Source: Escherichia coli
GTDB taxonomy: Bacteria > Pseudomonadota > Gammaproteobacteria > Enterobacterales > Enterobacteriaceae
Length of the DNA stretch: 64,000 nt
Assembly: GCF_044324785.1 (NCBI RefSeq)
Contig: NZ_CP172127.1
Direction: 5' to 3' (one strand)
A program made the translations under genes and the position numbers. This document shows positions 9,475 to 64,000 of the stretch, piece after piece. The notes under the pieces are model-generated. The model was not told where the DNA came from, made no database searches, and saw nothing but the letters and a program-made list of their open reading frames with translations. Every line of letters begins with the position of its first letter. The stretch's first letter is position 1.

Positions 9475-9509
9475 GTTCTGCGCTGTTAACGCGTAATTTA
9501 CATTCAACG

Positions 9510-9704: not shown

Positions 9705-12230
<2,526 letters not shown>

Positions 12231-12238
<8 letters not shown>

Positions 12239-13152: not shown

Positions 13153-13153
13153 G

Positions 13154-13924
13154 ATGTTACGTATTGCGGACAAAACGTTTGATTCACATCTGTTTACCGG
13201 CACCGGGAAATTCGCCTCTTCACAACTGATGGTGGAGGCGATCCGCGCTTCCGGCAGCCAGCTGGTGACACTGGCGATGAAACGCGTCAACTTGCGCCAG
13301 CACAACGACGCAATCCTCGAACCGCTTATCGCGGCGGGTGTGACCCTGCTGCCGAATACTTCCGGGGCGAAAACAGCGGAAGAAGCCATTTTCGCCGCCC
13401 ATCTGGCACGTGAAGCATTAGGCACAAACTGGCTAAAATTAGAGATTCACCCTGACGCCCGCTGGCTGTTGCCCGATCCCATCGAAACCCTGAAAGCCGC
13501 CGAAACGCTGGTACAACAGGGATTTGTCGTGCTGCCTTACTGCGGGGCCGATCCGGTATTGTGTAAACGTCTGGAAGAAGTCGGCTGTGCAGCGGTGATG
13601 CCGCTCGGCGCGCCGATTGGCTCGAATCAGGGACTGGAAACCCGCGCCATGCTGGAGATTATTATCCAGCAGGCCACCGTTCCGGTGGTTGTCGATGCTG
13701 GCATCGGCGTTCCCAGCCATGCCGCGCAGGCGCTGGAAATGGGGGCCGACGCGGTGTTAGTGAATACGGCGATTGCCGTCGCGGACGATCCCGTCAACAT
13801 GGCGAAGGCATTTCGTCTGGCGGTAGAAGCAGGCCTGCTGGCACGTCAGTCCGGACCGGGCAGCCGCAGTCATTTTGCTCATGCCACCAGCCCGCTGACT
13901 GGATTTCTGGAGGCATCGGCATGA
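13154..13924 (+). CDS. thiG: thiazole synthase
   Basis: 256 aa from [20 protein letters not shown] (internal Met of ORF 12896..13924). Confidence 0.92.
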
Positions 13925-15054
13925 AAACCTTCAGCGATCGCTGGCGACAACTGGACTGGGACGACATCCGCCTGCGTATCAACGGCAAAACGGCTGCTGA
14001 CGTAGAGCGGGCGCTAAATGCCTCGCAACTCACCCGCGACGATATGATGGCGCTGTTATCGCCAGCCGCCAGTGGCTATCTGGAACCACTGGCCCAACGG
14101 GCGCAGCGTCTGACCCGTCAGCGATTTGGCAACGTCGTCAGCTTCTACGTCCCGCTTTATCTTTCCAATCTTTGCGCTAACGACTGCACGTACTGCGGAT
14201 TTTCCATGAGCAATCGCATCAAGCGCAAAACGCTGGATGAAGCGGATATTGCCAGGGAAAGCGCCGCTATACGGGAGATGGGCTTTGAACATCTGCTATT
14301 AGTCACTGGTGAACATCAGGCGAAAGTGGGGATGGATTACTTTCGTCGTCATCTCCCTGCCCTGCGTGAACAGTTCTCTTCACTACAGCTGGAAGTGCAA
14401 CCGCTGGCGGAGGCGGAATACGCCGAGTTAAAGCAACTTGGTCTGGATGGCGTGATGGTTTATCAGGAGACATATCACGAGGCGACTTATGCCCGCCATC
14501 ATCTGAAAGGCAAAAAACAGGACTTCTTCTGGCGGCTGGAAACGCCGGATCGGCTGGGGCGTGCGGGGATTGATAAGATAGGCCTCGGCGCGCTAATTGG
14601 CCTTTCCGACAGCTGGCGCGTTGACTGCTATATGGTTGCCGAACATTTGCTATGGCTGCAACAGCATTACTGGCAAAGCCGCTACTCTGTCTCCTTCCCT
14701 CGTCTGCGTCCGTGTACTGGCGGCATTGAGCCGGCGTCGATTATGGATGAACGCCAGTTAGTGCAAACCATCTGCGCCTTCCGGCTGCTTGCACCGGAGA
14801 TTGAACTGTCACTCTCCACGCGGGAATCACCGTGGTTTCGCGATCGCGTTATTCCGCTGGCAATTAATAACGTCAGCGCTTTTTCGAAAACGCAGCCAGG
14901 GGGTTATGCCGACAATCACCCCGAGCTGGAACAGTTCTCACCACACGACGATCGCAGACCTGAAGCGGTTGCCGCCGCGTTAACCGCTCAGGGTTTGCAG
15001 CCGGTATGGAAAGACTGGGACAGCTATCTGGGACGCGCCTCGCAAAGGCCATGA
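13921..15054 (+). CDS. thiH: 2-iminoacetate synthase (radical SAM)
   Basis: 377 aa; CANDCTYC radical-SAM motif. Confidence 0.93.
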
Positions 15055-45397: not shown

Positions 45398-46297
45398 CAC
45401 TTTATCGAAATGGCCATCCATTCTTGCGCGGATGGCCTCTGCCAGCTGCTCATAGCGGCTGCGCAGCGGTGAGCCAGGACGATAAACCAGCCCAATAGTG
45501 CGGCGTGGTTCCGGCTTAATGCACGGCAGATAAACAACCCCATCGCGTTTGCGCTCCGGCGGCACAGCCAGCGCTGGCAATAAAGTGATCCCGCTACCTG
45601 CCGCCACCATGTTGCGCAGCGTCTCCAGGCTGGTCGCGCGGAAGTGTGTATCTTCATCTGCCCCGGCTTCAAAGCAGAAACCCATTGCCTGATCGCGCAA
45701 ACAGTGACCGTCTTCCAGCATCAGCAGTTTTTCCCCTGCCAGATCGGCCATCGGTACGCATTCGCGGTTCGCCCACGGGTGATCTTCATAGATAGCCAGC
45801 AACATTGGCTCATCAAACAACGGCACTTCAATGAATGCTTCGCTCTCTTTCACCAGCGCGAGGATCACGCAATCGAGTTTGCCGCTGTCCAGTTGCGCCA
45901 GTAACTGGTGGGTCTGTGCTTCATGCAGATACATTTCCAGCTTTGGAAAGGTCTGGTGCAGCATCGGGATAATATGCGGTAGCAGGTACGGCCCGACCGT
46001 GGGAATCAAACCAATATGCAGCGGCCCGGACATGGTCTCACCCTGCTGGCTTGCCATCTCTTTAAGGACTTTCACCTCACGCAGCACGGTACGCGCCTGA
46101 TCCACCAGCAGCATTCCCGCCTGGGTGAACAACACTTTACGGCTGGTCCGCTCCAGCAACATCACGCCCAGCTCATCTTCCAGCTTACGAATTTGCCCGC
46201 TAAGCGTCGGCTGGCTAACGTGGCAGGAGTCTGCCGCACGCCGAAAATGGCGGTGTTCAGCCAATGCCACCAGGTACTCAAGATCACGAATATTCAT
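45380..46297 (-). CDS. oxyR: LysR-family hydrogen peroxide-inducible regulator
   Basis: 305 aa from [44 protein letters not shown] (internal Met of ORF ending 46342). Confidence 0.97.
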
Positions 46298-46392
46298 TAT
46301 CCATCCTCCATCGCCACGATAGTTCATGGCGATAGGTAGCATAGCAATGAACGATTATCCCTATCAAGCATTCTGACTGATAATTGCTCACA
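46298..46392. promoter_or_regulatory. oxyR-oxyS divergent promoter / OxyR binding region
   Basis: Intergenic region between divergent oxyR and oxyS starts. Confidence 0.7.
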
Positions 46393-46509
46393 GAAACGGA
46401 GCGGCACCTCTTTTAACCCTTGAAGTCACTGCCCGTTTCGAGAGTTTCTCAACTCGAATAACTAAAGCCAACGTGAACTTTTGCGGATCTCCAGGATCCG
46501 CTTTTTTTT
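46393..46509 (+). ncRNA. oxyS: OxyS small regulatory RNA
   Basis: GAAACGGAGCGGCACCTCTTTTAACCCTTGAAGTCACTGCCCGTTTCGAGAGTTTCTCAACTCGAATAACTAAAGCCAACGTGAACTTTTGCGGATCTCCAGGATCCGC followed by T8 terminator. Confidence 0.92.
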
Positions 46510-46548
46510 ATTCTACAGGCCCACAGCAAGAGAGCCTGATAGTAACAG

Positions 46549-47832
46549 TTACTCAATCCGATCTTTGACAATAAAGAAGTAACACAGCGCCCCGGTGAAC
46601 GTCACACAGGCCGCGATAACCAGCGCCAGATTAAACGAGTGCGTGGTATCCACTACCCAACCGGTTACGATCGGAGCAAAGGAAGCAAAAACAAAACTGC
46701 CAAAGTTTTGAATCCCGGCGATGGAAGCCACTTTTGTTTCTGACACCATCACCTGCACCAGTCCCCATGCAGATGTTCCCGCGAAATGCACGCAGAACAG
46801 CGCCATTGAGATAAACGCTACCGCCTGGGCTGGCGAGGAGGATTGCACGACCAGCAACGTGCCTAATGCCGACATCATCAAACCGCAGACAATAGCCGTT
46901 TTACGCGTCTTCGCCAGGTCGTAGCCTTTTTTCGCCAGCCGATCGACAACAATACCGTTAACCCACATCCCAACCGCCGCCGCGAGGAAAGGAATCGCCG
47001 CCACCCAACCGGTTTTCGCCAGACTGAAACCTTGTTCGGCCTGCAAATAACCGGGCAACCACGCGATGTAGAGCCAGCCTGTATAGTTGACGCCAGAGAA
47101 ACCTAAAATCATCCCCCAGGTTGTCCGATGCTTAAACAGCGCCAGCCACTCGCTAAATTGTAATTGTGGACGCGGTTTAACCGGCGCGGAGAGATAGGTC
47201 CGTTCTTCGTCGGTCAGGACAAACTGCGCCCGGTTGCGATACCACGCGTACCAACAGATCCCAACCAGAATCCCCGCCACGCCGATGATGACGAACATTG
47301 CCCGCCAGCCCCATGCCAGCTGCATCAATACAAGAGCAGGAGGCGCAATAGCCTGACCGATAACGGTAGATGAGTTAAAAATCCCCAGCGCCGTGCCGCG
47401 TTCTTTTTGCGCATACCAGTCGGTGATCGACTTTACTCCCGCAGGCATAAATGGCGCTTCGCCAATACTCAAACCAATACGCATTAAAATAAAGTGGCTA
47501 AAAGAATTAACCATTCCTGTTAATGCCTGCATTAATGACCAGAATATTAAGCCTGCGCCTAAAACTATTCGTGGGCCAAAGCGGTCTAGCAAAATACCGG
47601 AAGGGAGTTGTGAAAAACCATAAGACAGAGAAAAGGCAGAAAGCAAAACGCCAAATTCTGTCGCCGATAATCCTAACTCGCCACGAATCGCTTCGCCTGC
47701 CACGCTCAATGACGAACGGTCGAGGAAATTAACGATCCCCGCCATAAATAATAAAACCAGGGTCACTGTCTGAATACGACGAATCCGTTGCGGTTTATTA
47801 CCCGCAACACTGGTTGACACATCAACGTCCAT
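46549..47832 (-). CDS. MFS transporter, anion:cation symporter type (DgoT/ExuT/GudP-like acid-sugar permease)
   Basis: 427 aa, about 12 predicted TM helices; GLFLDRFG-like motif (LLDRFGPR); immediately downstream of the dehydratase gene. Confidence 0.85.
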   Translation of the reverse strand: MDVDVSTSVAGNKPQRIRRIQTVTLVLLFMAGIVNFLDRSSLSVAGEAIRGELGLSATEFGVLLSAFSLSYGFSQLPSGILLDRFGPRIVLGAGLIFWSLMQALTGMVNSFSHFILMRIGLSIGEAPFMPAGVKSITDWYAQKERGTALGIFNSSTVIGQAIAPPALVLMQLAWGWRAMFVIIGVAGILVGICWYAWYRNRAQFVLTDEERTYLSAPVKPRPQLQFSEWLALFKHRTTWGMILGFSGVNYTGWLYIAWLPGYLQAEQGFSLAKTGWVAAIPFLAAAVGMWVNGIVVDRLAKKGYDLAKTRKTAIVCGLMMSALGTLLVVQSSSPAQAVAFISMALFCVHFAGTSAWGLVQVMVSETKVASIAGIQNFGSFVFASFAPIVTGWVVDTTHSFNLALVIAACVTFTGALCYFFIVKDRIE

Positions 47833-48888
47833 TTTTAGCTCCTTGAGCGGAATTAATCGATTTGATGACTATTCAGAAAATAATTAAGCGAACCGTTATT
47901 ACCAGTTCCACAATGTGCCATCTTCCAGTCGTGCGACGGGGAGATACGCCGGGTCATACGGATATTTCGCCGCCAGTTTCTCATCGAAAGAAATACCCAG
48001 CCCCGGTTCATCGCCTGGGTGCATATAACCTTCATCGAAGCGCCAGCTATGCGGGAAGACTTCAAGCATTTGTTCGGAATAGCCCATGTACTCCTGAACG
48101 CCAAAGTTTGGCACCCAGAGGTCAAAATGCAGCGCCGCCGCATGACAAACAGGCGATAAATCTGAAGGGCCATGCGAACCGGTACGTACCTGATAAAGCG
48201 ATGCAAAATCGGCAATCCGTCGCATCCCGGTAATGCCGCCTGCATGGGTAATCGTCGTGCGAATATAGTCAATCAGCTGCTCTTCGATTAACTGCTTGCA
48301 GTCCCAGATACTGTTAAACACTTCACCGACCGCAATCGGCGTCACAGTATGCTGGCGAATCAGACGAAAACATTCCTGGTTCTCGGCAGGCGTCGGATCT
48401 TCCATCCAGAACAGGCGGTAATCCTCAATGCTCTTCCCAAAGCGCGCCGCTTCGATAGGAGTCAGGCGATGGTGCATGTCATGCAACAGATGTTCGTTAA
48501 AACCGAACTTATTACGCACCGCTTCGAATAACTTCGGCGTAAAATCGAGATACTTTTCTGAAGACCACAACTGCTCTTCTGGCCACAGGCCTTTGGTTGC
48601 CGGTTCATACGCCAGTCCTTTGCCCTTCGCCAGGCCATAAGTGGTTTGCATACCCGGTACACCACACTGCACACGAATCGCCTTAAAGCCCATCTGCTGG
48701 TGCTTTGCATAGTCTTCAAGGACTTCATCAATCGTACGCCCGGTGGTGTGGCAATAAACCATCACGCCTTCACGAGAAGCACCACCAAGCAGTTGATACA
48801 ATGGCATATTTGCCGCTTTTGCTTTGATATCCCACAACGCCATATCAATGGCAGAAATGGCTGACATCGTGACGGGGCCACGTCGCCA

Positions 48889-48897
48889 GTAAGCACC
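48889..48897. repeat. IS1 target-site duplication (left copy) GTAAGCACC
   Basis: Identical 9 bp at 49666..49674 directly flanking the other IS1 end. Confidence 0.95.
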
Positions 48898-48952
48898 GGT
48901 GATGCTGCCAACTTACTGATTTAGTGTATGATGGTGTTTTTGAGGTGCTCCA

Positions 48953-49228
48953 GTGGCTTCTGTTTCTATCAGCTGTCCCTCCTGTTCAGCTACTGACGGG
49001 GTGGTGCGTAACGGCAAAAGCACCGCCGGACATCAGCGCTATCTCTGCTCTCACTGCCGTAAAACATGGCAACTGCAGTTCACTTACACCGCTTCTCAAC
49101 CCGGTACGCACCAGAAAATCATTGATATGGCCATGAATGGCGTTGGATGCCGGGCAACTGCCCGCATTATGGGCGTTGGCCTCAACACGATTTTACGTCA
49201 CTTAAAAAACTCAGGCCGCAGTCGGTAA
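48953..49228 (+). CDS. insA: IS1 InsA
   Basis: 91 aa [43 protein letters not shown]... zinc-finger/HTH protein. Confidence 0.95.
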
Positions 49229-49650
49229 CCTCGCGCATACAGCCGGGCAGTGACGTCATCGTCTGCGCGGAAATGGACGAACAGTGGGGCTATGTCGGGG
49301 CTAAATCGCGCCAGCGCTGGCTGTTTTACGCGTATGACAGTCTCCGGAAGACGGTTGTTGCGCACGTATTCGGTGAACGCACTATGGCGACGCTGGGGCG
49401 TCTTATGAGCCTGCTGTCACCCTTTGACGTGGTGATATGGATGACGGATGGCTGGCCGCTGTATGAATCCCGCCTGAAGGGAAAGCTGCACGTAATCAGC
49501 AAGCGATATACGCAGCGAATTGAGCGGCATAACCTGAATCTGAGGCAGCACCTGGCACGGCTGGGACGGAAGTCGCTGTCGTTTTCAAAATCGGTGGAGC
49601 TGCATGACAAAGTCATCGGGCATTATCTGAACATAAAACACTATCAATAA
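49147..49650 (+). CDS. insB: IS1 InsB frame (expressed as InsAB' transposase by -1 frameshift)
   Basis: 167 aa ORF overlapping insA 3' end; A6C slippery motif TTAAAAAACTC at about 49198. Confidence 0.93.
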
Positions 49651-49665
49651 GTTGGAGTCATTACC

Positions 49666-49674
49666 GTAAGCACC
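49666..49674. repeat. IS1 target-site duplication (right copy) GTAAGCACC
   Basis: Matches 48889..48897. Confidence 0.95.
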
Positions 49675-50269
49675 TTTATAAAAGAATTGCCAGATATCTT
49701 CGATACGGCTGGCATCGCGGCCAATTAATTGTGGACAAAGATGATCTTTCAGATAAGAAGCGACCGACAATTCGCGCCCATTTAACGTGGCATCTCCTAA
49801 TCCACAAAGTCCGCTTTCAGTGGTTATTTTAAGCGTAACGAAATTACGTCCTGGGCAAGTAACAAAAACATCTGCAGCAATAATTTTCATTATTGCAATC
49901 TCCTGTGTTGTAAATAGACGCTTCAAACTTAATTTTACGCCTACTACCATACAAGAGAGAAAGAGCGATTATTCAACCGTGATCACATTAAAAACAAAAA
50001 TTCCCACCGAGGAACAAGAATATCCTCAAATTTCATCCACACTATTAATTACTATTGTTAAAACAACACGTTAAATAATCACATAACAAATTCCTCTAAG
50101 GAAGAGAGTCATAACAATAACAAATGATAATCATATTTTACTTAATTCAATACGTATCGATATGTTTATTTTAAAAAGATTTTTCGGAATGAGAGATGAA
50201 AAGAAGATACACAAACAGGAAGAAATACGATTAATATTGGTCGCGGTAAGGGTAGCCGTTCCTCCCTTC

Positions 50270-50376
50270 CGCAACCCATTAACCCTTGAAGTCACAGTCT
50301 ATTTCAGGCATTTCTCAACTCAAAATAACGAAGGCCAATGTGAACTTTGTGGCTCTCCAGGATCCGCTTTGTTTTC
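50270..50376 (+). ncRNA. degenerate oxyS-like sequence (pseudo-oxyS, 3' two-thirds incl. terminator hairpin)
   Basis: AACCCTTGAAGTCAC...TTTCTCAACTC.AAATAAC.AAGGCCAATGTGAACTTTGTGGCTCTCCAGGATCCGCTTTGTTTT aligns to oxyS 46410..46509 at roughly 80 percent identity. Confidence 0.7.
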
Positions 50377-50378
50377 CA

Positions 50379-51857
50379 TCAAACAACGGAACTCAGCGCA
50401 CTGGCAACCTGTTTAAAGCGAGCAAACCGTCGCCTGAGCATGTGTGCTTTTTCTACATTCGGTTCAAGACGAATCACGTTGAGATGCGTGGCCTTCATGG
50501 CCTGTTTGAATCCAGAATAAGCCCCTCCTCCTACTGCCGCACACATTGCAGCCGCTCTACAACCTGACTGTTCAATATCGACAATTTCAAGAGGCATGTT
50601 GCTGGCATCACAAAACATCTGCATCCAGATTCTGGAATGCGTTGGCCCGCCAGAGAAACGAATCGTTTGCAATGACTTATCAATCTCAATAAGACGGTCC
50701 TGATGCAACAAATGAGAAAAGACAATGCCCTGATAAATCGCGTACACCAAATCTTCTCTTTTATGATGCCCACACAGCCCCAAAAATCCCCCGCTTAATG
50801 CCTCATGGTAATTCGAGCCAAACAACCACGGGAAAAAGAGAATATCATTCTGCTTCTCATACCCTCGTTCCACCCACTCATTAATCACCCGATAGCTGTC
50901 AGGAAGATCCGGTAAAAATTGCTGCAAGAACCATGTCAAATTACTGGCTGATGTAGGGCTTCCCTCATGGGCGAAAAATGTACCTGGAATGCTAAATTTC
51001 CCCCATACATAGGGATAATCAGAAGGAATAATGCGATCAAAGATACGCGTTGCAATTGACCAGGTGCCAGCAACCGCACTTAACGTTGTACTGTCATAGA
51101 TGCCAGAAGTGAGCGCCGCACCAACGACATCAAAAACACCACCAAAAACAGGCGTTCCGGCGAGAAGCCCACATTGGCTGGCTGCTTCAGATGTCACAAC
51201 CCCTGCTAAATCAGCGGAGCCAATAATATCGGGAACCTTACCCGCAACTTCCTTAATCTCAAATAGGCGAAAAAGTTCAGCATCATAAGCACTGGTATAT
51301 TGATTATAAAAATTACTGCCTGAAATATTGGTTTCTTCACAAGCCAGTTTGCCAGTAAGCCGTGAACGTATGTAATCATGAACCATCAAAATGGTTCCGA
51401 TGCGGCCATAATTGTCAGTCTCATGTTTTTTCAACCAATGCAATAGTGCTACAGGGTGCGATGGCCAGAGCTGTTGCAGACTACGGTGATAGCTTTCGCG
51501 GTCAATTCCTTGTTCTTTCCAGCTTGCAACCAGTTGTTGTGCGCGAGAATCAGAGGAAACAATGCCGTATCGTAAGGGCTTACCTTGCCGGTCGAGCAGG
51601 TACAAACCTTTACCATGAGCAGAAAAACTGATGCCATCAATCTGACTCGCAGTAATATTGTTCTCTGACATCGACAGTGAAATGACCTGGCACGTTACCT
51701 TCCATAACGCCTCCATGTCGCGTTCGCAAAAACCAGGACATGGGCTTAACAGAGGTAACACTTGCGAAGAGACACCTATTTCACGTCCTTCTGCCGTATA
51801 AATTCCCGCTTTGGTTTCTGTACCACCTAAATCGACACCAATAAAATACCGCTCCAT
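50379..51857 (-). CDS. FGGY-family carbohydrate kinase, L-xylulokinase (LyxK/SgbK)-like
   Basis: 492 aa; N-terminal GVDLGGT, conserved HEGSPTSASNLTWF, FFPWLFGSN, GGPTHSRIWMQMF blocks resembling E. coli LyxK. Confidence 0.85.
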   Translation of the reverse strand: MERYFIGVDLGGTETKAGIYTAEGREIGVSSQVLPLLSPCPGFCERDMEALWKVTCQVISLSMSENNITASQIDGISFSAHGKGLYLLDRQGKPLRYGIVSSDSRAQQLVASWKEQGIDRESYHRSLQQLWPSHPVALLHWLKKHETDNYGRIGTILMVHDYIRSRLTGKLACEETNISGSNFYNQYTSAYDAELFRLFEIKEVAGKVPDIIGSADLAGVVTSEAASQCGLLAGTPVFGGVFDVVGAALTSGIYDSTTLSAVAGTWSIATRIFDRIIPSDYPYVWGKFSIPGTFFAHEGSPTSASNLTWFLQQFLPDLPDSYRVINEWVERGYEKQNDILFFPWLFGSNYHEALSGGFLGLCGHHKREDLVYAIYQGIVFSHLLHQDRLIEIDKSLQTIRFSGGPTHSRIWMQMFCDASNMPLEIVDIEQSGCRAAAMCAAVGGGAYSGFKQAMKATHLNVIRLEPNVEKAHMLRRRFARFKQVASALSSVV

Positions 51858-51873
51858 GATCCCTCCTTAGTTT

Positions 51874-52737
51874 CTAAATATTATCCCAGCCGGCAAGGCG
51901 CATTTTCTCTTCAATCCATTGACGTGCATGAATAATTTCTAATAGAGGTTCCGTCGCTTTTTCTGTCCACATTTCTATCAGAAACGTTCCGCGATAATTA
52001 AGATTACGCAGAATCTTAAATAATTTAATAAAATCTACACACCCTTCACCAAAAGGAACGTCACGAAATTGCCCTGGAGAATCAGGCGTTACTGGGTACG
52101 TATCTTTAAGATGGATTGCGGCAATTCGATCAATCCCCTTTACCAGCTCACTTTCCAGTTCATTACCCCATGCGGTCAGATTGCCAACATCCGGATAAAC
52201 GGTAAACCAAGGGGAATTAATTTTTGTATCCAGGACTTTCCATTTACTAATAGAATTAATAAATGGCGTATCCATGATTTCTACAGCACACATAACTTGT
52301 GCCGCTGCGGCCTGTTCAGCTGTCCAGGCCATCGCATCTTCAAACCAGGCGATAGTTTCTTCATTCTGCGGCTCATAATAAACGTCATAGCCTGCCAGTT
52401 GGATTGTTCGAATCCCCAAATCCTGCGCCAGGCGTAACGCCTTCAACATAATCGTACGCGCCTGCTGACGAGTATCTCTATCATGGCTACCAAATGGAAA
52501 ACGCCGGTGAGCAGACAGGCACATTGTCGGAATACGGATCCCCGTTTGCTGAATGGCGCTAATAAGCTCCATACGCTCGGTGAGCGACCAGTCCAGGCGG
52601 GCGAGTCGTTCATCATTCTCATCTACCGACATCTCAACAAAATCAAAACCGCAAGATTTAGCCAGGGCTAGTTTCTCTACCCAACTGGTATTCCTGGGTA
52701 GCGCTTTTTCATAAATACCTAACGGGTGGCGTCGCAT
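51874..52737 (-). CDS. L-ribulose-5-phosphate 3-epimerase (UlaE/SgbU family, TIM-barrel)
   Basis: 287 aa; PLGIYEKALP...GFDFVEMSVDE.DERL.RLDWS...MCLSAHRRFP.GS...IQLAGYDVYY motifs nearly colinear with UlaE. Confidence 0.88.
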   Translation of the reverse strand: MRRHPLGIYEKALPRNTSWVEKLALAKSCGFDFVEMSVDENDERLARLDWSLTERMELISAIQQTGIRIPTMCLSAHRRFPFGSHDRDTRQQARTIMLKALRLAQDLGIRTIQLAGYDVYYEPQNEETIAWFEDAMAWTAEQAAAAQVMCAVEIMDTPFINSISKWKVLDTKINSPWFTVYPDVGNLTAWGNELESELVKGIDRIAAIHLKDTYPVTPDSPGQFRDVPFGEGCVDFIKLFKILRNLNYRGTFLIEMWTEKATEPLLEIIHARQWIEEKMRLAGWDNI

Positions 52738-53783
52738 TATTTTCCCTCACGAGTGATCAATTGTTGTTGAAAGATTTTCCGGCTCTTATTCATGTCACGC
52801 TGCAACTGCCATTTTTGTTTGATGAATTTAAATGCCAATGCGGCGATCAATGTGATCCCCCATACCGCCAGATTGAAATGCAAACTAATTCCCAACAGAC
52901 TAAGGCCGGTAGCAATAACCTGAAGCACAAGTAAGGCACAAAAAACATGACTGACTTTACCCGCCCCACCGAATGGATCTGTGCCTCCCAATACAATTGC
53001 AAGAACCGTCAAGAGCAAATAGGAATCGCCATAGCCCATACGCGCCGAATTAAATCGCGCGAGCATAATAAGACCTGCTAATACACACAACATGCTGGAT
53101 ATAGCATATATAGCAATTAATACGCGGTCGGTGCGAATACCGCTAAACCATGTGGCGTTAATATTACTGCCACACATATAAATCGTTTTTCCCGTACGGG
53201 TTTTGCCGAGGAACAGAGCTAAAGCAACGGTGGTGACGATAAAAATCATCATCGGTACTGGGATCCCCATGATAACTTCAGACCCAATACTGCGGACTAC
53301 TGGTGGCATACCACTTAAAGCTGCCCCCTTAGTCAGGTAAATACCGATACCACTAATAATGGTCATGCTACCCAATGTGACCAAAATAGGGTGAGCGCCT
53401 ATATGAGAAATAATTAACCCAGTAATAGCTCCAATGATGATGGCAATAAGCATCGCCCCGACAATAGCCAGGAAGAGCCAAAACAACTGGCTACCTGTAG
53501 ATGCATCTGCGGGTACATATTGAATCAACACCCAGGCCATAAACAGGCTGGTCAGATTCGCAGTACCGATGATTGCCAGATTAAGCCCCCCGCTCAACAT
53601 CGGTATAAACATCGCAAACGTGAGCAACCCAAGCTCTGGCAATTGAAATGCAATGCTCAGAAAAGTATTGTCGGTGAAAAAACGCCCCGGCATTGCCAGA
53701 CTAAATAACACCACCGCAATAAAACATATTGATAATAAGCCTGAACTGGTACCATCTAGTGGAAAAAATATCCGCTTGTTCAT
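52737..53783 (-). CDS. sugar ABC transporter permease (RbsC/YjfF-like)
   Basis: Polytopic membrane protein; start taken at MNKRIFF (ORF extends to 53813, overlapping upstream permease). Confidence 0.8.
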   Translation of the reverse strand: MNKRIFFPLDGTSSGLLSICFIAVVLFSLAMPGRFFTDNTFLSIAFQLPELGLLTFAMFIPMLSGGLNLAIIGTANLTSLFMAWVLIQYVPADASTGSQLFWLFLAIVGAMLIAIIIGAITGLIISHIGAHPILVTLGSMTIISGIGIYLTKGAALSGMPPVVRSIGSEVIMGIPVPMMIFIVTTVALALFLGKTRTGKTIYMCGSNINATWFSGIRTDRVLIAIYAISSMLCVLAGLIMLARFNSARMGYGDSYLLLTVLAIVLGGTDPFGGAGKVSHVFCALLVLQVIATGLSLLGISLHFNLAVWGITLIAALAFKFIKQKWQLQRDMNKSRKIFQQQLITREGK

Positions 53784-53796
53784 TTCGATCCTCCCG

Positions 53797-54789
53797 TTAG
53801 ACGAAACCAACATCAGTTTCTTTACGCTTTTTGTAATGGGTCACACAAATCGCCGAGACAATAACCACCCCAATAACGATATTGACGAAATAACTCGAGA
53901 CACCAATCAAATTAAGGCCGTTTTTAAGAATACCGATAAGAAATACGCCCATAAGCGTACCAATGACCGTACCACGTCCGCCTGATAAACTGGCACCGCC
54001 CAATACCGCTGCAGCCAGCACATCCAACTCTCCGCCAACCAATGCATTCGGCACAACTTCACTCATACGGTAAGCTTGCAGCATTCCACCAATTGCTGCA
54101 GCGGCACCAAGATAACCGTAAGCAAACAGATAAATTAGCGACACCCGAATCCCAATACGTCTTGCTGATTCGGTATTCCCTCCCACGGCATAAAGCTGAC
54201 GCCCAATATGGGTTTTGTTCATTATCACCCACGTCAGAAATGCCATTCCCAGCATAACCACTAACGGTAATCCGATCTGGTAATCTTCTCCGCCAAATTC
54301 AAAACTCAGGAAAGAACGCTGCGTAATCCACCAATCCGGTAAATCGTAAATACTGTGACCATTAGTCAACCACATCAACATACCGAACAGTAACGACTGC
54401 ATACTAATCGTAATGATGATAGAAACGACATTAAGGTAATAAATAAGAATAGCGTTTATCAAACCAAAAATGATGCCAAAAAAAACAGCAAACACCAGGC
54501 AGAAAAATGGATTTGATAGCGTTTCATTAAGCAGTAACGACGCCACAACATATTGCACAACCGAAGCTACTGCTGCAAAAGAGATATCAATTCCGCCAGT
54601 AACCAATACGACAAATAATCCGAGGGCGAAAATACCCGTTACGGCATAACTCTCCGAGAGATCGAGCAAGTTCTGTATTGATAAAAACTCATCGCTCATG
54701 ATGGAAAAAAATACCAGCATGAGAACAATGACCCATCCTAACCAAGCTTCGACTGAACGAGGAAACCGCAGCCGCATAAAGCTAACCAT
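53797..54789 (-). CDS. sugar ABC transporter permease (RbsC/YtfT-like)
   Basis: 330 aa polytopic membrane protein; start overlaps ATPase stop. Confidence 0.8.
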   Translation of the reverse strand: MVSFMRLRFPRSVEAWLGWVIVLMLVFFSIMSDEFLSIQNLLDLSESYAVTGIFALGLFVVLVTGGIDISFAAVASVVQYVVASLLLNETLSNPFFCLVFAVFFGIIFGLINAILIYYLNVVSIIITISMQSLLFGMLMWLTNGHSIYDLPDWWITQRSFLSFEFGGEDYQIGLPLVVMLGMAFLTWVIMNKTHIGRQLYAVGGNTESARRIGIRVSLIYLFAYGYLGAAAAIGGMLQAYRMSEVVPNALVGGELDVLAAAVLGGASLSGGRGTVIGTLMGVFLIGILKNGLNLIGVSSYFVNIVIGVVIVSAICVTHYKKRKETDVGFV

Positions 54790-56299
54790 TAATCACCTCC
54801 GCCAACTGCTGCTCGGTATAATTCGAAGGCAACAGCTCATGAATAATCTTTCCGCGCTTCATATGAAAAATACGATCGCAGTTATAATAAGCTTCTGGTG
54901 CTTCATCAGTAATTAATATCACTGAAATACCCACACCTGAAAGCCGATGAATAAGCTGGTAAATACTATCTTTTGCGCCAATATCTACACCTACCGTTGG
55001 CGCATCCAGAATTAAAACCTTAGGTCGTGTTAAAATCCATTTAGCCAGGACAACCTTTTGTTGATTGCCACCAGATAGCGTTGAAAGTGGATTATTTGGA
55101 TCGGTGACCTTAATATCCAAATCCTGGATCCACTCCTTGACTAAGGTTTCTTTTCGATTTTCATCAATAAACCCCGATGGCGTCTTTAAACGATCCAGAA
55201 TCGAGAGCACCATATTATCGCTGATAGATTGGGGTAATACGGCCCCCAGTGTCAGGCGATCTTCTGAAACATATGCTATTCCCAGTTTTACCGCATGCGT
55301 GTTGTCTTTAATTGTAACGGGCTTACCTTCAAGATAAATATCACCACTATCTGCTCGAGTAATACCGAAAAGACTCAATGCTAATTCGGTTCTCCCCGCA
55401 CCAAGTAAACCACACAATCCCAGAACCTCGCCTTGGTGTAGTTTTAGAGATACATCTTCAAATTGCCCTTTTCTGCATAATTTTTTTAGTTCAAGAACTA
55501 CTTTACCTTCAACGCTATTTGGTAGTTTTTTCTGGTGGACTATAGTTTTTCCGGTCATTAACTCAGTAATATCGCCTGGAGAAAGTTGATTGGCAGCCCA
55601 CGTTCCAATTATCTCTCCATCACGGATGACCGTAATTCGGTCTGAGATTTCCTTAACTTCATCAAGGCGGTGGCTAACAAAAACTACGGTAATATTTTTA
55701 TCGCGTAAGTAATTCACTGTGCGTAGTAATTGATTAACTTCAGTGCGCGTCAATGACGCCGTTGGCTCGTCCATGATGACTAACCGGGCATCGGCAATCA
55801 GAGCCCGGCAAATAGCGACCTGTTGGCGTTGTGCAATCGGCAAATGTTGTACTAACGCATCAGGATCGAGATTGAATTCCAGTTCCTGAATTATTTTCTG
55901 TGATACATCTCGAAGTTGTTTTTTTCTGTGCAGCCCTAAATATCCCTTCAGGTTGTATTCAAAAGCGATATTTTCAGCCACAGAAAGATTTGGGAATAAA
56001 GAAAGATCCTGATATATCACCTGAATACCCAGTTCCCGAGCTTTATCAGGAGAAAGACGAGTCCAGGACTTACCATCTATAATAATTTCACTTCCCGAAT
56101 CAGGAACATAAACACCACACAGCGTTTTGATCAGAGTACTTTTACCACACCCATTCGCACCAGCAAGACAATGAACCTCACCTTTATTTAAGGTAAGATT
56201 GATATTTTTTAGAGCCCTATGGCCACCGAAACTTTTCGTTAGTGACCTTAGCGTCACTAATGGTTGCTCCGCATTCTTCTCTATAATATGAGGCATCAT
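54782..56299 (-). CDS. sugar ABC transporter ATP-binding protein (duplicated NBD, RbsA/YtfR-like)
   Basis: 505 aa; Walker A GANGCGKST in first NBD, LSGG signature in the second (LSGGNQQK), two NBDs. Confidence 0.88.
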   Translation of the reverse strand: MMPHIIEKNAEQPLVTLRSLTKSFGGHRALKNINLTLNKGEVHCLAGANGCGKSTLIKTLCGVYVPDSGSEIIIDGKSWTRLSPDKARELGIQVIYQDLSLFPNLSVAENIAFEYNLKGYLGLHRKKQLRDVSQKIIQELEFNLDPDALVQHLPIAQRQQVAICRALIADARLVIMDEPTASLTRTEVNQLLRTVNYLRDKNITVVFVSHRLDEVKEISDRITVIRDGEIIGTWAANQLSPGDITELMTGKTIVHQKKLPNSVEGKVVLELKKLCRKGQFEDVSLKLHQGEVLGLCGLLGAGRTELALSLFGITRADSGDIYLEGKPVTIKDNTHAVKLGIAYVSEDRLTLGAVLPQSISDNMVLSILDRLKTPSGFIDENRKETLVKEWIQDLDIKVTDPNNPLSTLSGGNQQKVVLAKWILTRPKVLILDAPTVGVDIGAKDSIYQLIHRLSGVGISVILITDEAPEAYYNCDRIFHMKRGKIIHELLPSNYTEQQLAEVING

Positions 56300-56362
56300 A
56301 ATATTCCTGAATACGACTAAAGGAATTCCGGGTCAAATTTGACCCGGTGATTTACGGTAAAA

Positions 56363-57367
56363 TTACAAGCCTAACTTCACTAAATGTCGTGTATTTTCAA
56401 GATCGAGCTTTTCTGGATTATCACTATAAATAGTGTTGTTATTAACCTTGATCTCGCCCATATCACCGATTTTTACACCGTCTTTAATAGGTTCACCGTT
56501 CATCATTGCCGTCGCAACCTGGACAAAAACCTTACCCGCAATCATAGGGTTTGAAATATATCCCCCATCAATGGCGCCTTTTTCGAGTAGCTTAATTCCC
56601 TGACCTGGAGTGAAGGTTCCAAAAACGCAAATTGCGTCATTTTTCTTCCGCTTATCAATAGCACGCCCCGCACCAATTGGTCCTTGTGAACCAAATGACA
56701 TAATGCCTTTAAGATCTTTATATTTAGACATTAAATCGTTCGTCGTGCGCATTGAATCATCCACCGATTCAGCAACACCAAAACGATCTTCAACCAACGT
56801 CATATTTGGATAATGTTCTTTTTGATAAGCAATCGCGGCATTGGCCCAGTCATTTACCAAAGGCACGGTCAGACTGCCGACAAACATGGCGTATTTACCT
56901 TCTTCGCCCATGCACTTCGCCATATCTTTCATATGATTGGCACCCATTGTCTGGGTATTTAACAACTCAAAATCCCAATCTGCATTTTTTTGATCTGGTG
57001 ATTCGTGGGTAATAACTTTAATACCGGCTTCTTGTGCACGCTTAAGTACAGGTTCAAGAACCTTTGCATCGTTAGGAACAACCCCAATAACATCCACTTT
57101 TCGTGCAATTAAATCTTCAATCGCCCGAACCTGTTCAGCTGGATCTGCCGTTGTAGGGCCGACCTGCCATGCATCAACCCCCAATAGTTTTCCTTCATCT
57201 TTAATGCCTTGTTCCATCACATTAAACCAGGGAATGCCACCGACTTTTACTACTACCCCCATCGTAAAAGGTTTATTCGCTTTTTGTGATGTTACAGTCT
57301 GATCAGCCCATGCAGCAGTGGAAGATAATACGGTAGCAATAAGGCAGGGTAAGATTAATTTTTTCAT
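56363..57367 (-). CDS. periplasmic sugar-binding protein (PBP type I, RbsB/YtfQ-like)
   Basis: 334 aa; signal peptide MKKLILPCLIATVLSSTAAWA; first gene of ABC operon. Confidence 0.82.
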   Translation of the reverse strand: MKKLILPCLIATVLSSTAAWADQTVTSQKANKPFTMGVVVKVGGIPWFNVMEQGIKDEGKLLGVDAWQVGPTTADPAEQVRAIEDLIARKVDVIGVVPNDAKVLEPVLKRAQEAGIKVITHESPDQKNADWDFELLNTQTMGANHMKDMAKCMGEEGKYAMFVGSLTVPLVNDWANAAIAYQKEHYPNMTLVEDRFGVAESVDDSMRTTNDLMSKYKDLKGIMSFGSQGPIGAGRAIDKRKKNDAICVFGTFTPGQGIKLLEKGAIDGGYISNPMIAGKVFVQVATAMMNGEPIKDGVKIGDMGEIKVNNNTIYSDNPEKLDLENTRHLVKLGL

Positions 57368-57390
57368 CGTAATTTCCTTAAGAAATAGTT

Positions 57391-57430
57391 CAGGTGTCAG
57401 GAAAACTCGATATAATATCGACCTGACTAT
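57391..57430. promoter_or_regulatory. palindromic candidate operator/promoter upstream of ABC operon
   Basis: Perfect 15-bp palindrome TCGATATAATATCGA flanked by GTCAGG / CCTGAC half-sites, 30-70 bp upstream of SBP start; contains TATAAT. Confidence 0.4.
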
Positions 57431-57489
57431 TTATATAATTTATAATCCCTTAGGCATTGATTAATAATTTAGACAATAAATAATGCCTA

Positions 57490-58299
57490 TTATTTATCAA
57501 CCTCCACAATGTTTAATTGTGGAAATTGTGTTCGATACCGAGTATCTGTACAAACATTAGTCACCAGAATATCGATTTCATCCAGCGTGCATATTTTACT
57601 AAATGCATACTGTTCAAACTTACTGGAGTCGACCAGCAATATTTTTTGTCCTGACACCTGAAGCATCACCTGTTTAAGTCTGGCATTAATTTCACTGCCA
57701 TCGCGGACACCATTCCCCAGATTCAACCCCTGGCATGAAAAGAAAAAACTGTTGATTTGAAAATTTCGGATCGCCCCCTCTGCAACCGGGCCATGAAAAT
57801 CATCATGTCGCTCAGAATACTCACCACCGATACCAATAATTCGAACTCGATCACGGCAAGCCAACGCCTGAATTATCCGTAATGAATTTGTAACTACAGT
57901 AACATCTATATCGGGAATTTGACGAGCTAAAAACCAACAAGTACTACTGTTATCCATTAAAATACAATCACCAGGGTGAATAAATTGCAATGCGGCCTTC
58001 GCAATTCTGGCTTTTATATCAGGATTTTCTTCAGTCCGTTTACGGAATGATTCCGCACGATCGATACTATTATCTTGCCACGCATTATCGGCGAGCATAA
58101 CCGGAGCGCTATCAGATGAATCCAGAGCGACCGCGCCACCAAAGCTACGGATTAACTTTTTGTTGCGCTCCAGTACCGTTAAATCCCGACGAATTGTCTC
58201 AGGAGACGCTTTAAATAATCGTGATAATTCTGTTACCTGTACAGCACCTTGTTTTTGTACATGTGCGCATATCATTTTATGGCGCTCTGCCTGCAACAT
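57490..58299 (-). CDS. DeoR-family transcriptional regulator (sugar-phosphate sensing type)
   Basis: 269 aa; N-terminal HTH (VTELSRLFKASPETIRRDLTVLE) and C-terminal DeoR-C sugar-phosphate binding domain. Confidence 0.85.
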   Translation of the reverse strand: MLQAERHKMICAHVQKQGAVQVTELSRLFKASPETIRRDLTVLERNKKLIRSFGGAVALDSSDSAPVMLADNAWQDNSIDRAESFRKRTEENPDIKARIAKAALQFIHPGDCILMDNSSTCWFLARQIPDIDVTVVTNSLRIIQALACRDRVRIIGIGGEYSERHDDFHGPVAEGAIRNFQINSFFFSCQGLNLGNGVRDGSEINARLKQVMLQVSGQKILLVDSSKFEQYAFSKICTLDEIDILVTNVCTDTRYRTQFPQLNIVEVDK

Positions 58300-58752
58300 A
58301 GTATCGGTCCGTTATTATCAAATTAGCATGCTTATATAATTAACTGTTCCCTCATAAAATAAAGTGATAGGAATCAAGATTCATTTTATAAATATAATCG
58401 CAAACAGAAATGGTGATCTTTACCACAAATTAAATTGAGAATATTCTACTATTGGACATTTTTTTGAGATATACGTCACTAAATAAGCTTTATTCTGTCA
58501 CCTGACGAAAAATTTAAATGCAAAAACAAAAATAATCGGGCATAGCAATCTCTTCCATTCATGACCGAATACGCCCGAATAAAACCGTTTACGCCCACTT
58601 ACCCTCTTTCATTGCCTTCTTACATGCCTTGAATATTTTACATTTCTTATATTCAGCGTAATTTAGGCAACATAATTTACGAGCAAAAATAGCCAAAACC
58701 CAAAAGTTAAAGTTTATTTATATAATACATACAGATTATCGTGGAGTTAAAA

Positions 58753-59435
58753 ATGGATACGCTAAAGGAAAAAGTTCTTGCTGCGAATTTATCACTACCC
58801 CTTCATCAGTTAGTGACGTTTACCTGGGGAAATGTTAGCGGTATTGATCGCGAAAAAGGTGTCATGGTTATTAAACCTTCTGGGGTCGAATACAGCCAAA
58901 TGGGCAGGTGGTAGTGGATTTACAAAGTGGTGAAGTTATTGATGGACACAGGAAACCCTCTTCAGACACAGATACTCATCTGGCGCTATACCGTGCTTTC
59001 CCGGATATTGGAGGTATCGTTCATACCCATTCCCGACACGCCACAATATGGGCTCAGGCCGGAAAAGATCTCACGGCCTTTGGGACAACCCATGCAGATT
59101 ATTTCTACGGCACTATCCCCTGTACACGCCCCATGAAGGATGACGAAATTAATGGACAATATGAATATGAAACGGGGCGAGTGATTATTGAAACGTTCAG
59201 GCAACGAGAAATATCTCCCGCTGACATTCCGGCTGTTTTAGTAAACAGTCATGGCCCCTTTGCCTGGGGAACTGATCCCGCGAACGCCGTGCATAACGCC
59301 GTTGTACTTGAAGAAATCGCCTATATGAATCTCTTTACACAACAGCTACACCCCCATCTTACGGCTATTCAACAGCCTCTACTGGATAAGCATTTTTTAC
59401 GCAAGCATGGTGCCAATGCTTATTACGGGCAGTAA
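58753..59435 (+). pseudogene. L-ribulose-5-phosphate 4-epimerase (AraD/SgbE/UlaF class II aldolase family), apparent frameshift
   Basis: Frame 1 [51 protein letters not shown] then stop at 58910..58912; continues in another frame [21 protein letters not shown]...[14 protein letters not shown]...[18 protein letters not shown]. Confidence 0.8.
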
Positions 59436-59484
59436 CCCTCTAAGCATGGCCTGGCGTTTTGCCAGGCCACGAATCGCCCAGGAC

Positions 59485-60858
59485 TTACCCCAACCGCGCC
59501 CTTGCAAAAGCAATCGCCTGCGCCACCTGCTGCGGTGAGACGCCGCCTTTTGCAGCACGCTTGTCGAGGCACGATTGCAGCGACAGAATCGGATAGACAT
59601 CTTCGCCAATCACCTGGCTGAATTTCTGCAACTCACTGAGCGGCAGATCTTCCAGCGGTTTGCCCTGACGAATGGCTTCCACCACCGCTTCACCAACAAT
59701 ATGGTGCGCCTCGCGGAACGGTACGCCTTTCGCCACCAGGTAATCCGCCAGTTCAGTGGCGTTCGCATACCCCTGCTGCGCCGCTTCCTGGCAACGTGGA
59801 CATTTCACCTGAATGCCGTCCAGCACCAGCGCCGCCATATGCAAGCAGTCCAGCCAGGTATCGAGCGCGTCGAACAGACCTTCTTTGTCTTCCTGCATAT
59901 CTTTGTTGTAAGCCAGCGGCAAACCTTTCAGCGTCATCATCATGCCGGTTAACGCCCCCTGCACCCGACCGCATTTACCGCGAATCAGCTCCAGCGCATC
60001 CGGGTTTTTCTTCTGCGGCATTAATGATGAACCTGAAGTCACGCGGTCAGAAAGCTCCACAAATCCCGCTTCGCCGGTGTTAAAGAAAATCAGATCTTCA
60101 GCAAAACGCGACAGATGCACCATGCCGATAGCGGCAGCAGAAAGCAGTTCCAGCACATGATCACGGTCAGAAACGCTGTCGAGACTGTTACGGGTCGCCG
60201 AAGCAAAGCCCAGCCAGCCTGCTAACTGTTCACGGTCGATTTCATAGGCCGTTCCCGCCAGTGCGCCACAGCCTAACGGGCTGACATCCAGACGCTTAAG
60301 CGCGTCCTGCAAACGGCTTTCATCACGCGCCAGCATCTCAACGTAGGCCAGGCACCAGTGCGCGAAAGTCACCGGTTGAGCGCGTTGCAGGTGGGTGTAA
60401 CCTGGCATTACCGCGTCCTGATTGTTTTGTGCGGTTTCCACCAGCGCCGATTGCAGCTGCCGGTTAGCCGTCAGTAACTCGCTAACGGTATCTTTGCACC
60501 ACAGTTTCAGGTCAGTCGCGACCTGGTCATTACGGCTACGCCCGGTGTGCAGTTTTTTGCCTAACTGACCCACTTTGTCGATCAATTTGCCTTCCACCCA
60601 GCTATGGATATCTTCGGCGTCGCTTTCAAGGATTTGTTGTGGCCTGGCGCGAACATCTTCCAGCAGCACGTTCAGCGCCTCTTCCAGTTGCGCCTGTTCT
60701 TCTGCGGTCAACACACCGACCGTTACCAGGGCTTTGGACCAGGCCACAGAGCCAACAATATCCTGCTCCGCCAGACGGTAATCAAAGCGCAGTGAGTCGT
60801 TGAATTGTTTGAACCGTTGATCTGCTGCCTGGGTAAAACGCCCGCCCCAAAGTGCCAT
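59485..60858 (-). CDS. argH: argininosuccinate lyase
   Basis: 457 aa [44 protein letters not shown]... Confidence 0.97.
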
Positions 60859-60918
60859 AACTCTGTTTCCTTATTTTGAAATTCAATGCCGGAAAGCTGC
60901 GCCTCCGGCCAACAAAAC

Positions 60919-61695
60919 TTAAGCTAAAATCCGCGTACCCATCGGCATACCGTTAAACAGTGCCGGAAGCTGTTCCGCATGACGCCAGGAGGCGATATCC
61001 ACCGGGCGGCCCAGCGTGCGTGCAGCATCCAGCGCCGCGTTCACTTTCACTATCATGCCGTCAGTAATAATGCCCTGCTCAATCAGTTGTTCTGCTTTCG
61101 CGGCGGTCATTTCGGCAATGCGTTGCCCTTTGCCGTCGAGAATGCCACTGACGTCGGAGAGCAAAATCAGATCCGCGCCCAGCGTTGCCGCCAGCGCCGT
61201 TGCCGCCTGATCGGCATTGACGTTCATCAGTTGCCCTTCGTCTGTTACGCCAATGGAGCTGACCACCGGTAGATAACCGTTCTCCAGCAAGGAGTTGATA
61301 AGCTTAGGCGAACCTGGCTGCGCCAGTCCAACATGGCCTAACTCTTCATCAAGCTGGGTCACTTTGACGCTGTCGCCGTCACCGAGAAACAAACCTACGG
61401 CCGCAATCTGATGTTTCTTCGCCCATGCCAGCAGGGTTTTATTTGCCGTTCCCGCCAGTGCTCCGGTGATAATGTCAATCTGATCAGCAGGCGTCACCCG
61501 CAGGCCGTTTTTCTTTTTCACCGGCAGATTCAGCCCTTTCATCAGCTCATCCACCACGCAACCGCCGCCGTGCACAATCACCAGCGGACGCTGATGTGAC
61601 ACACGATAATTCACCAGTGCACTAAACAGACGTTCCAGCGCCTCTTCACTATCCAGCAGTACGCCGCCCAGTTTGATAATTAATGGATTCATCAT
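60919..61695 (-). CDS. argB: acetylglutamate kinase
   Basis: 258 aa from [24 protein letters not shown] (internal Met of ORF ending 61728). Confidence 0.95.
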
Positions 61696-61702
61696 TGCAC
61701 CC

Positions 61703-62707
61703 TTAAATAAGAGACTGCGTTTCCGCATAGCCGAAACGAATATTGGCGCACTGTACCGCTTGTGCCGCCGCGCCTTTCAGTAAGTTGTCTTCGGTCGCCA
61801 CAATAATCAGATGCTCGCCCTGAACGGCAAACCCGATATCGCAAAATGGCAGCCCAACGACATTTTTCAGCGCCGGAACGCCTTTGTCATACAGTCGCAC
61901 CAGCGGTTTATGGGCATACGCCTGCTGTAACACTTGCGCGACTTGCGCCTGGGTCACACCCGGTTTCAGGCGGCAGGTAATGGTTTCGAGAATGCCGCGC
62001 GGGAAATTGCCCAGATGCGGGGTGAAGATAACGTCAGCACCGAGGTGTGTGGCGATCTCTGGTTGATGGCGATGGGTAAAGACGCCATACGGTTGCAGGC
62101 TAACTTCACAAAAACTATTTGAAATCGCTGCCTTACGTCCTGCACCGCTCACGCCGCTGGTGGCGTTGATTACCGGCCACTGATTGAGGTCAAGAAGATC
62201 GGCATCAATCAACGGTTTCAGCGCCAGCTGTGCCGCCGTCGGATAACAGCCTGGCACGGCAATCAAGTTCGCTTCTTTTAATTTATTACCGCACCACTCC
62301 GCCAGACCGTAGGCTGCCTGTTCCAGCAGTTCCGGATACTGATGGGTAAAGCCGTAATATTTTTCATAGAAGGTGGCGTCGTTAACACGAAACGCGCCGG
62401 AAAGGTCGAACACCACGCAGCCCGCTTCAAGAAATTGCGGCGCTAAATCGTGGCTAACTTCATGGGCGGTGGCGAGAAACACCACGTCCACCCCTGGGCT
62501 AAACTCGCTGATATCCGACATCGGCTGCAACGGCAGATCAACGATGCCTTTGAGCTGCGGATGCAAATCGGAGATTAACTTTCCCGCATCATTGCTTTGC
62601 GCTGAAACAGTCAAAGCGGTTATGTTCATATGCGGATGGCGATTTACATAGGTCACTAGCTCTGCGCCAGCGTAGCCGCTGGCACCCACAATCAGCGTAT
62701 TCAACAT
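61703..62707 (-). CDS. argC: N-acetyl-gamma-glutamyl-phosphate reductase
   Basis: 334 aa [54 protein letters not shown]... Confidence 0.96.
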
Positions 62708-62860
62708 CGGGGCTATTCACCTTCTTATGTCTGGTTGCCAGGTTAAACGTAAAACATTCACCTTACGGCTGGTGGGTTTTATTACGCTCAACGTTAGTGT
62801 ATTTTTATTCATAAATACTGCATGAATATTGATACTATCATGACCAGAGGTGTGTCAACA
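62708..62860. promoter_or_regulatory. argE / argCBH divergent control region (ArgR-regulated)
   Basis: AT-rich intergenic region between divergent argC and argE starts. Confidence 0.6.
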
Positions 62861-64000
62861 ATGAAAAACAAATTACCGCCATTTATCGAGATTTACCGTG
62901 CTCTGATTGCCACACCTTCAATAAGCGCCACGGAAGAGGCACTCGATCAAAGCAATGCAGATTTAATCACTCTGCTGGCGGACTGGTTTAAAGATTTAGG
63001 CTTCAATGTGGAAGTGCAGCCTGTGCCAGGAACTCGCAACAAATTTAATATGCTGGCAAGTATCGGACAGGGGGCTGGCGGTTTGTTGCTGGCGGGGCAT
63101 ACCGATACGGTGCCATTTGATGACGGACGCTGGACGCGCGATCCGTTTACACTGACGGAGCATGACGGCAAGCTTTACGGCTTAGGCACCGCCGACATGA
63201 AAGGCTTTTTTGCGTTTATCCTTGATGCGCTACGCGATGTCGACGTCACGAAACTGAAAAAACCGCTCTACATTCTGGCGACTGCCGATGAAGAAACCAG
63301 TATGGCCGGAGCGCGTTATTTTGCCGAAACTACCGCCCTGCGCCCGGATTGCGCCATCATTGGCGAACCGACGTCACTACAACCGGTACGTGCACATAAA
63401 GGTCATATCTCTAACGCCATCCGTATTCAGGGCCAGTCGGGCCACTCCAGCGATCCAGCACGCGGAGTTAACGCTATCGAACTGATGCACGACGCCATCG
63501 GGCATATTTTGCAATTGCGCGATAACCTGAAAGAACGCTATCACTACGACGCGTTTACCGTGCCATACCCTACGCTCAACCTCGGGCATATCCACGGTGG
63601 CGATGCATCTAACCGTATTTGCGCTTGTTGTGAGTTGCATATGGATATTCGTCCGCTGCCAGGCATGACACTCAATGAACTTAATGGCCTACTCAACGAT
63701 GCGCTGGCTCCGGTGAGCGAACGCTGGCCGGGTCGTCTGACGGTCGACGAGCTGCATCCGCCGATCCCTGGCTATGAATGCCCGCCAAATCATCAACTGG
63801 TTGAAGTAGTTGAGAAATTGCTCGGAGCAAAGACCGAAGTGGTGAATTACTGTACCGAAGCGCCGTTTATTCAAACGTTATGCCCGACGCTGGTTCTGGG
63901 CCCTGGCTCAATTAATCAGGCTCATCAGCCTGATGAATATCTGGAGACGCGGTTTATCAAGCCCACCCGCGAACTGATAACCCAGGTAATTCACCATTTT
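62861..64000 (+). CDS. argE: acetylornithine deacetylase, 3' end beyond window
   Basis: Open frame from ATG 62861 ([35 protein letters not shown]...) to window end with no stop; not in the ORF list because it is unterminated. Confidence 0.93.

Follow-up and report, generated by a model that had tools for sequence, protein, structure and literature searches.

L-ribulose-5-phosphate 4-epimerase of Escherichia coli is known as AraD (PDB 1JDI/1K0W), with the paralogues SgbE and UlaF. In AraD, Asp120 and Tyr229 are catalytic, the metal site consists of three histidines, and the active site is formed by two adjacent subunits (PMC5434028). The 3-epimerase step precedes the 4-epimerase step in the described pathway order, which leads to D-xylulose-5-phosphate (PMC3219644). 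The accumulation of L-ribulose-5-phosphate is toxic in araD-deficient E. coli, as stated in the part of PMC7269641 that cites Englesberg (1962). In this work, a further gene of this type was analysed in a stretch of 64,000 nucleotides from E. coli contig NZ_CP172127.1, which is referred to below as the window. By comparison with AraD, SgbE, and UlaF, this gene is a fourth, accessory copy with approximately 65–70% DNA identity to the core paralogues, present in 146 of 5,426 complete genomes. Its repaired product can be aligned with AraD over the full length, and equivalents of all key residues are encoded; in contrast to araD, the copy in the window is interrupted by a 10-bp deletion. We regard the locus, with a probability of about 0.93, as a frameshift pseudogene that is ordinary, young, and specific to its lineage and whose enzyme family is well known.

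The true start of the epimerase gene is ATG 58753, although the program-made list of open reading frames begins upstream at GTG 58741. From this ATG, the frame runs for 53 codons before a TAG, so the gene is not a single uninterrupted frame of about 230 codons. The sequence-only reading had proposed a frameshift in an AraD/SgbE-like gene, and both the reading of the frames and the alignment with orthologues bear this out. Its position for the stop codon (58910..58912) was two nucleotides too far to the left, the actual TAG being at 58912..58914. The rest of the protein (...AYYGQ), which it had assigned to another frame, is found in the −1 frame, running to 59435 from GTG 58908 or GTG 58914. 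This frame is open from 58875 and carries the remaining 173–175 codons. The alternative start at GTG 58914, which is the choice of gene callers, gives 173 amino acids and shares one base with the stop codon (TAGTG).

The alignment with strains N3 and 746 shows that the intact GGGCA-TTGCAGATAT-GGTGG has become GGGCAGGTGG in the window. The intact orthologous gene has 230 codons and reads YSQMGIADMVVVDLQ around the site, where the missing bases encode part of ..QMG-IADM-VVVD... The deletion takes out Ile-Ala-Asp together with one base of the following codon, which causes a −1 shift after codon 51 and the TAG two codons later. The earlier guess of a small indel can thus be specified as exactly 10 bases missing against two intact orthologues, and the expectation of 4–5 missing residues agrees with the same alignment. 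Between 49666 and 64000 of the window, the 10-bp gap is the sole indel relative to the intact strains 746, N3, and GCA_044697405.1. Intact orthologues occupy the same locus and the length of the lesion is not a multiple of three, as in a frameshift pseudogene. Neither flanking microhomology nor a repeat was found at junction 58906/58907 in the alignment of the deletion site. A slipped-strand or microhomology origin was rejected, as no bases are common to both sides of the junction and the site is non-repetitive; for the same reason, the deletion is not an instance of phase-variable slippage.

When the reading frame is repaired, residues 2–230 of the 230-residue product align with residues 3–231 of E. 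coli AraD (PDB 1JDI) with an E-value of 1.4e-107, so the split frame does not arise by chance. The repaired product belongs to the AraD family according to the TIGR00760 araD equivalog model (414.9 bits, cut-off 389.1) and also exceeds the cut-off of NF009002 (433.5 bits, cut-off 386). The N-terminal fragment encodes equivalents of AraD Asn28, Lys42, Ser44, and Gly45, and the C-terminal fragment encodes those of Ser74, Ser75, Asp76, His95, His97, Asp120, His171, and Tyr229. The histidine triad (H94, H96, and H170 in the numbering of the product) and the equivalents of Asp120 and Tyr229 (D119 and Y228) are therefore conserved in the C-terminal frame. In AraD, Asn28, Lys42, Ser44, and Gly45 belong to the phosphate pocket, and the metal-binding histidines are numbered His95, His97, and His171; the 1JDI structure is the subject of Luo et al. 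(2001) and Samuel et al. (2001).

If translated from the normal start, the gene would give a 53-residue peptide that comprises no more than the N-terminal helix, the first strands, and the residues that bind phosphate. The part with the ligands of the metal and the catalytic residues Asp and Tyr is out of frame and has no properly spaced ribosome-binding site. An AGGTGGT stretch ends 1 nt before GTG 58914, which is probably too close for a Shine-Dalgarno role. The C-terminal fragment would be at best a low-level product of re-initiation at the GTG that overlaps the stop. Termination-reinitiation at TAGTG could make this fragment, and complementation between the two fragments would be possible. 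Since neither fragment has a complete active site and there is no slippery site, the deletion allele is very probably null.

The search for orthologues was performed by megablast with positions 58700..59450 as the query against 5,426 complete E. coli genomes. Wherever it was present, the locus was chromosomal and single-copy, and all 146 matches were within the 95–99% identity band. Every one of the 146 loci comprises 760–761 record bases against 751 bases of the query, so none of these complete genomes has the deletion (0 of 146), and all have an uninterrupted 230-codon gene. Among the matches listed, each is annotated as an intact araD. A comparison with orthologous loci had been proposed in the sequence-only reading, and its outcome is that the orthologues are single-frame genes with 10 extra bases, not the same sequence translated from a different start.

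The repaired protein is identical to P0001, a protein that occurs on 260 contigs and is annotated there as L-ribulose-5-phosphate 4-epimerase of E. coli. P0001 and WP_001550392.1 are examples of the intact allele. By exact-sequence look-up in a public collection, the 53-residue N-terminal product (P0002) and the 173-residue C-terminal product (P0003) were each found on 8 contigs. The 173-residue product was present on 16 contigs that were read, from ENA (ERZ21883334) and Logan (SRR9971410, ERR11819501, ERR4843519, and others), with the two reading frames always adjacent and the island context the same throughout. Both fragments have PF00596 matches, and the N-terminal fragment is called as a gene with such a match at four of these loci (L003–L006). 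The deletion-bearing loci have an identical junction and differ from the window by only 1–3 SNPs over approximately 14 kb. Thus, the lesion is reproduced in independent assemblies of several ENA and Logan samples. The deletion cleanly marks a small and recent sub-lineage, being present on approximately 16 contigs against approximately 260 with the identical intact allele.

Four SNPs were observed within the deletion clade. Kinase E352V occurs in L003, W47* in the substrate-binding protein occurs in L005 (sample ERR11819501), ArgE G69R is common to L003 and L006, and R21Q in the DeoR-family regulator is found in the window only. The W47* change is a nonsense mutation in the gene at L005 7450..8454. 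ArgE G69R, at window position 63065 (argE on the + strand from 62861), distinguishes L003 and L006 from both the window and the intact relative. R21Q (58238, CGG to CAG) is in the helix-turn-helix region of the regulator and is strain-private, as every relative examined has Arg. All four SNPs are nonsynonymous, as expected of very recent divergence. Because the SNPs are private, the deletion contigs represent distinct isolates and not re-assemblies of one data set.

The epimerase gene belongs to an accessory sugar island of approximately 13 kb between oxyR and argH, the features of which are listed in Table 1. A literature search found no relevant description of this oxyR-argH island. Apart from manD and the epimerase gene, the island genes are of full length and have no internal stops, with 0–1 amino acid differences from strain N3. 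The genes of the sugar module (50379..57367) are as long as their annotated orthologues.

Table 1. Coordinates of the epimerase lesion and of the surrounding island features in the window.
Feature	Position	Strand	Remarks
MFS transporter (D-galactonate-transporter-like)	46549..47832	-	intact; left end of the island, adjoins oxyR
manD, split by IS1	47899..49890	-	pieces 47899..48897 and 49666..49890
IS1 in manD	48898..49665		768 bp; 9-bp target duplication GTAAGCACC at 48889..48897 and 49666..49674
FGGY kinase	50379..51857	-	below every NCBIfam equivalog cut-off
L-ribulose-5-phosphate 3-epimerase	51874..52737	-	UlaE/SgbU type; TIGR00542 458.5 bits (cut-off 272.15)
ABC permease	52737..53783	-	family match
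ABC permease	53797..54789	-	family match
ABC ATPase	54782..56299	-	family match
Substrate-binding protein	56363..57367	-	family match
DeoR/GlpR-family regulator	57490..58299	-	intact, R21Q; divergent from the epimerase gene
araD/sgbE/ulaF-like pseudogene (L-ribulose-5-phosphate 4-epimerase type)	58753..59435	+	reading frames and orthologue alignment
N-terminal fragment ORF	58753..58914	+	51 native residues and Arg-Trp, then TAG 58912..58914
Deletion junction	58906..58907	+	10 bp TTGCAGATAT of intact orthologues missing between these bases
C-terminal fragment, −1 frame	58908..59435	+	175 codons from GTG 58908

A 453-bp divergent region separates the epimerase gene from the regulator gene, and the epimerase gene ends 49 bp from the convergent argH. 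The gene is therefore a separate, divergently transcribed unit and is not within the operon. The sequence-only reading had spoken of a lost enzyme in an otherwise intact operon. This description holds for the regulator, transporter, 3-epimerase, kinase, and MFS genes, which are of full length and 0–1 amino acids from N3, and fails for the epimerase gene, which is outside the operon. Polar effects on other genes are not expected, given that the epimerase gene forms a transcription unit of its own.

Judging by the neighbouring gene families, the ABC transporter would import a sugar, which the FGGY kinase would phosphorylate, probably to L-xylulose-5-phosphate. The 3-epimerase would then make L-ribulose-5-phosphate, and the 4-epimerase would make D-xylulose-5-phosphate. 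If the ula and sgb pathways are taken as a model, the 4-epimerase is probably the last dedicated step. Without this step, the strain would have to rely on the chromosomal paralogues araD, sgbE, and ulaF, provided that it uses the pathway at all. A paralogue of the araD type (65–70% DNA identity) was detected at least once in 5,424 of the 5,426 complete genomes, and the median number of detectable copies was two. Back-up 4-epimerase activity from paralogues at loci outside the window is plausible in this strain.

The nearest intact relative among those retrieved (there were 21 similar places besides) is L008 (GCA_044697405.1, contig DBBGBS010000034.1). Over 15.2 kb, L008 differs from the window in three respects only, namely the 10-bp deletion, the missense SNP R21Q (58238), and the IS1. 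The deletion is a derived and very recent event in a small E. coli sub-lineage. The IS1 is inserted approximately 220 nt into manD and is absent from the deletion-bearing L003–L005 as well as from the intact L008. It is thus peculiar to this strain and arose after the epimerase deletion, given that deletion-bearing relatives do not have it. When the IS1 is removed in silico, manD is intact with 404 codons.

Lesions were also observed in the islands of other lineages. The manD gene of strain N3 has an internal stop (L001 1977..3191), which is an independent lesion; a stop common to N3 and the window was rejected, as the IS1-free manD of the window translates intact to 404 amino acids. In Nord58, 23AR0303, and other strains, an IS1 is found at the 5' end of the FGGY kinase gene (L007 4104..6298), so the insertion in manD is not the same as theirs. 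The ongoing decay of the island, suggested by the sequence-only reading, is a reasonable description in view of the manD IS1 of this strain and the independent lesions of other lineages. The nonsense codon of L005 in the gene of the substrate-binding protein agrees with this description. The epimerase deletion, the manD IS1, and the independent lesions elsewhere suggest that selection on the oxyR-argH sugar island is weak in E. coli.

None of the 5,426 complete RefSeq genomes of E. coli exceeds 98.4–98.5% identity to the core backbone of the window (1..15000 and 59436..64000; purD-thiH and argH-argE). The E. coli lineage of the window is thus one that has no representative in the complete-genome set. 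A Shigella origin, to which the IS1 and the pseudogenes had pointed, was rejected, as public records assign the exact ArgH, ThiC, and kinase proteins of the window to Escherichia coli. The island (45923..57999) is approximately 99.9% identical to that of strain N3, whereas the adjacent arg genes are 98.4% identical, and the divergence climbs from approximately 58000 rightwards. Therefore, the island and its flank have different histories (possibly through recombination or horizontal exchange).

The lesion could be thought of as an artefact of sequencing or assembly, with the real gene intact and the 10 bases lost in assembly or consensus calling. Such errors do occur in a related assembly, L009 (GCA_028598205.1), which has many single-base indels typical of a noisy long-read consensus. 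In its contig JAQRHF010000002.1 (5.5 Mb), scattered indels of 1–2 bp disrupt several island genes and are almost the only differences from the window and L008. They have the look of consensus errors of long reads that were left uncorrected, which is a caution against counting pseudogenes from such assemblies. The lesion in the window, on the other hand, is a 10-bp loss in non-repetitive sequence and not a homopolymer slip. Sixteen contigs, which come from different samples and were built by different assemblers (ENA contigs of SPAdes style, Logan unitigs), have the identical junction and the identical 53- and 173-residue products, and they are set apart by private SNPs (E352V in the kinase, W47* in the substrate-binding protein, and G69R in ArgE). 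An assembly artefact was rejected and has a practically negligible probability, given that different assemblers reproduce a 10-bp loss in non-repetitive sequence and that independent samples with SNPs of their own show the same junction and products. It is also very improbable that the gene still works, either by −1 frameshifting to a near-full-length protein minus 3–4 residues or as a split enzyme coupled through TAGTG. The one-base overlap between the first stop and the second GTG start is a layout that can allow re-initiation, the two pieces together still encode every catalytic and binding residue, and neither piece has gathered further mutations. However, no slippery heptamer of the type X XXY YYZ was found in the 40-nt frame overlap 58875..58914 or in 58872..58912, and AGGTGGT is probably too near GTG 58914. 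Furthermore, the break removes IADM(V) and splits core elements of a single-domain fold, and all intact orthologues are single reading frames. Programmed −1 ribosomal frameshifting was rejected, since a slippery heptamer is lacking and every orthologue is read in one frame. The absence of further mutations in the two pieces is explained by the young age of the lesion. With the frameshift pseudogene as the preferred reading, the locus should receive one annotation, that of a frameshifted pseudogene for an accessory L-ribulose-5-phosphate 4-epimerase, instead of being split into two small genes for class II aldolases.

It is also conceivable that the same lesion was selected. In this case, the loss of the 4-epimerase would be adaptive, or a toxic L-ribulose-5-phosphate trap would select secondary hits in the transporter, kinase, or regulator. 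The block falls at a step whose loss is classically toxic, in accordance with the toxic accumulation of L-ribulose-5-phosphate in araD-deficient E. coli (PMC7269641). The genes for the steps ahead of the block (transporter, kinase, and 3-epimerase) are intact, and three of the SNPs in the deletion clade are island SNPs in the substrate-binding protein (W47*, L005), the kinase (E352V, L003), and the regulator (R21Q, window). Such a case would be a natural example of a toxic intermediate driving the stepwise loss of a pathway. However, the within-clade SNPs number only four, and the sole one outside the island (ArgE G69R) is also nonsynonymous, which is the pattern of very recent divergence anywhere. 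Moreover, the paralogues araD, sgbE, and ulaF may drain L-ribulose-5-phosphate, and lineages with an intact epimerase also have island lesions, which fits plain relaxed selection. We therefore consider a selected loss to be unlikely. The more specific proposal that W47*, R21Q, E352V, and the manD IS1 are suppressors in an araD-minus-like trap, and not neutral decay, is less probable still.

As a frameshift pseudogene in an accessory island, the locus can be compared with the described pentose pathways of E. coli. The island resembles the ula and yiaK-S (sgb) L-ascorbate/L-xylulose pathways of K-12 in that the last two epimerase steps are encoded side by side. Unlike ula and sgb, it includes no decarboxylase for 3-keto-L-gulonate-6-phosphate, PTS, or TRAP transporter; in their place are an ABC-type importer for sugars, an FGGY kinase that is uncharacterised, and a regulator of the DeoR family. 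In its genes, the strain also resembles the classical araD (arabinose-sensitive) mutants of E. coli, in which the last enzyme is lost and the uptake and kinase steps are intact. Unlike in the classical mutants, the block is in an accessory pathway for which three paralogues are potential back-ups.
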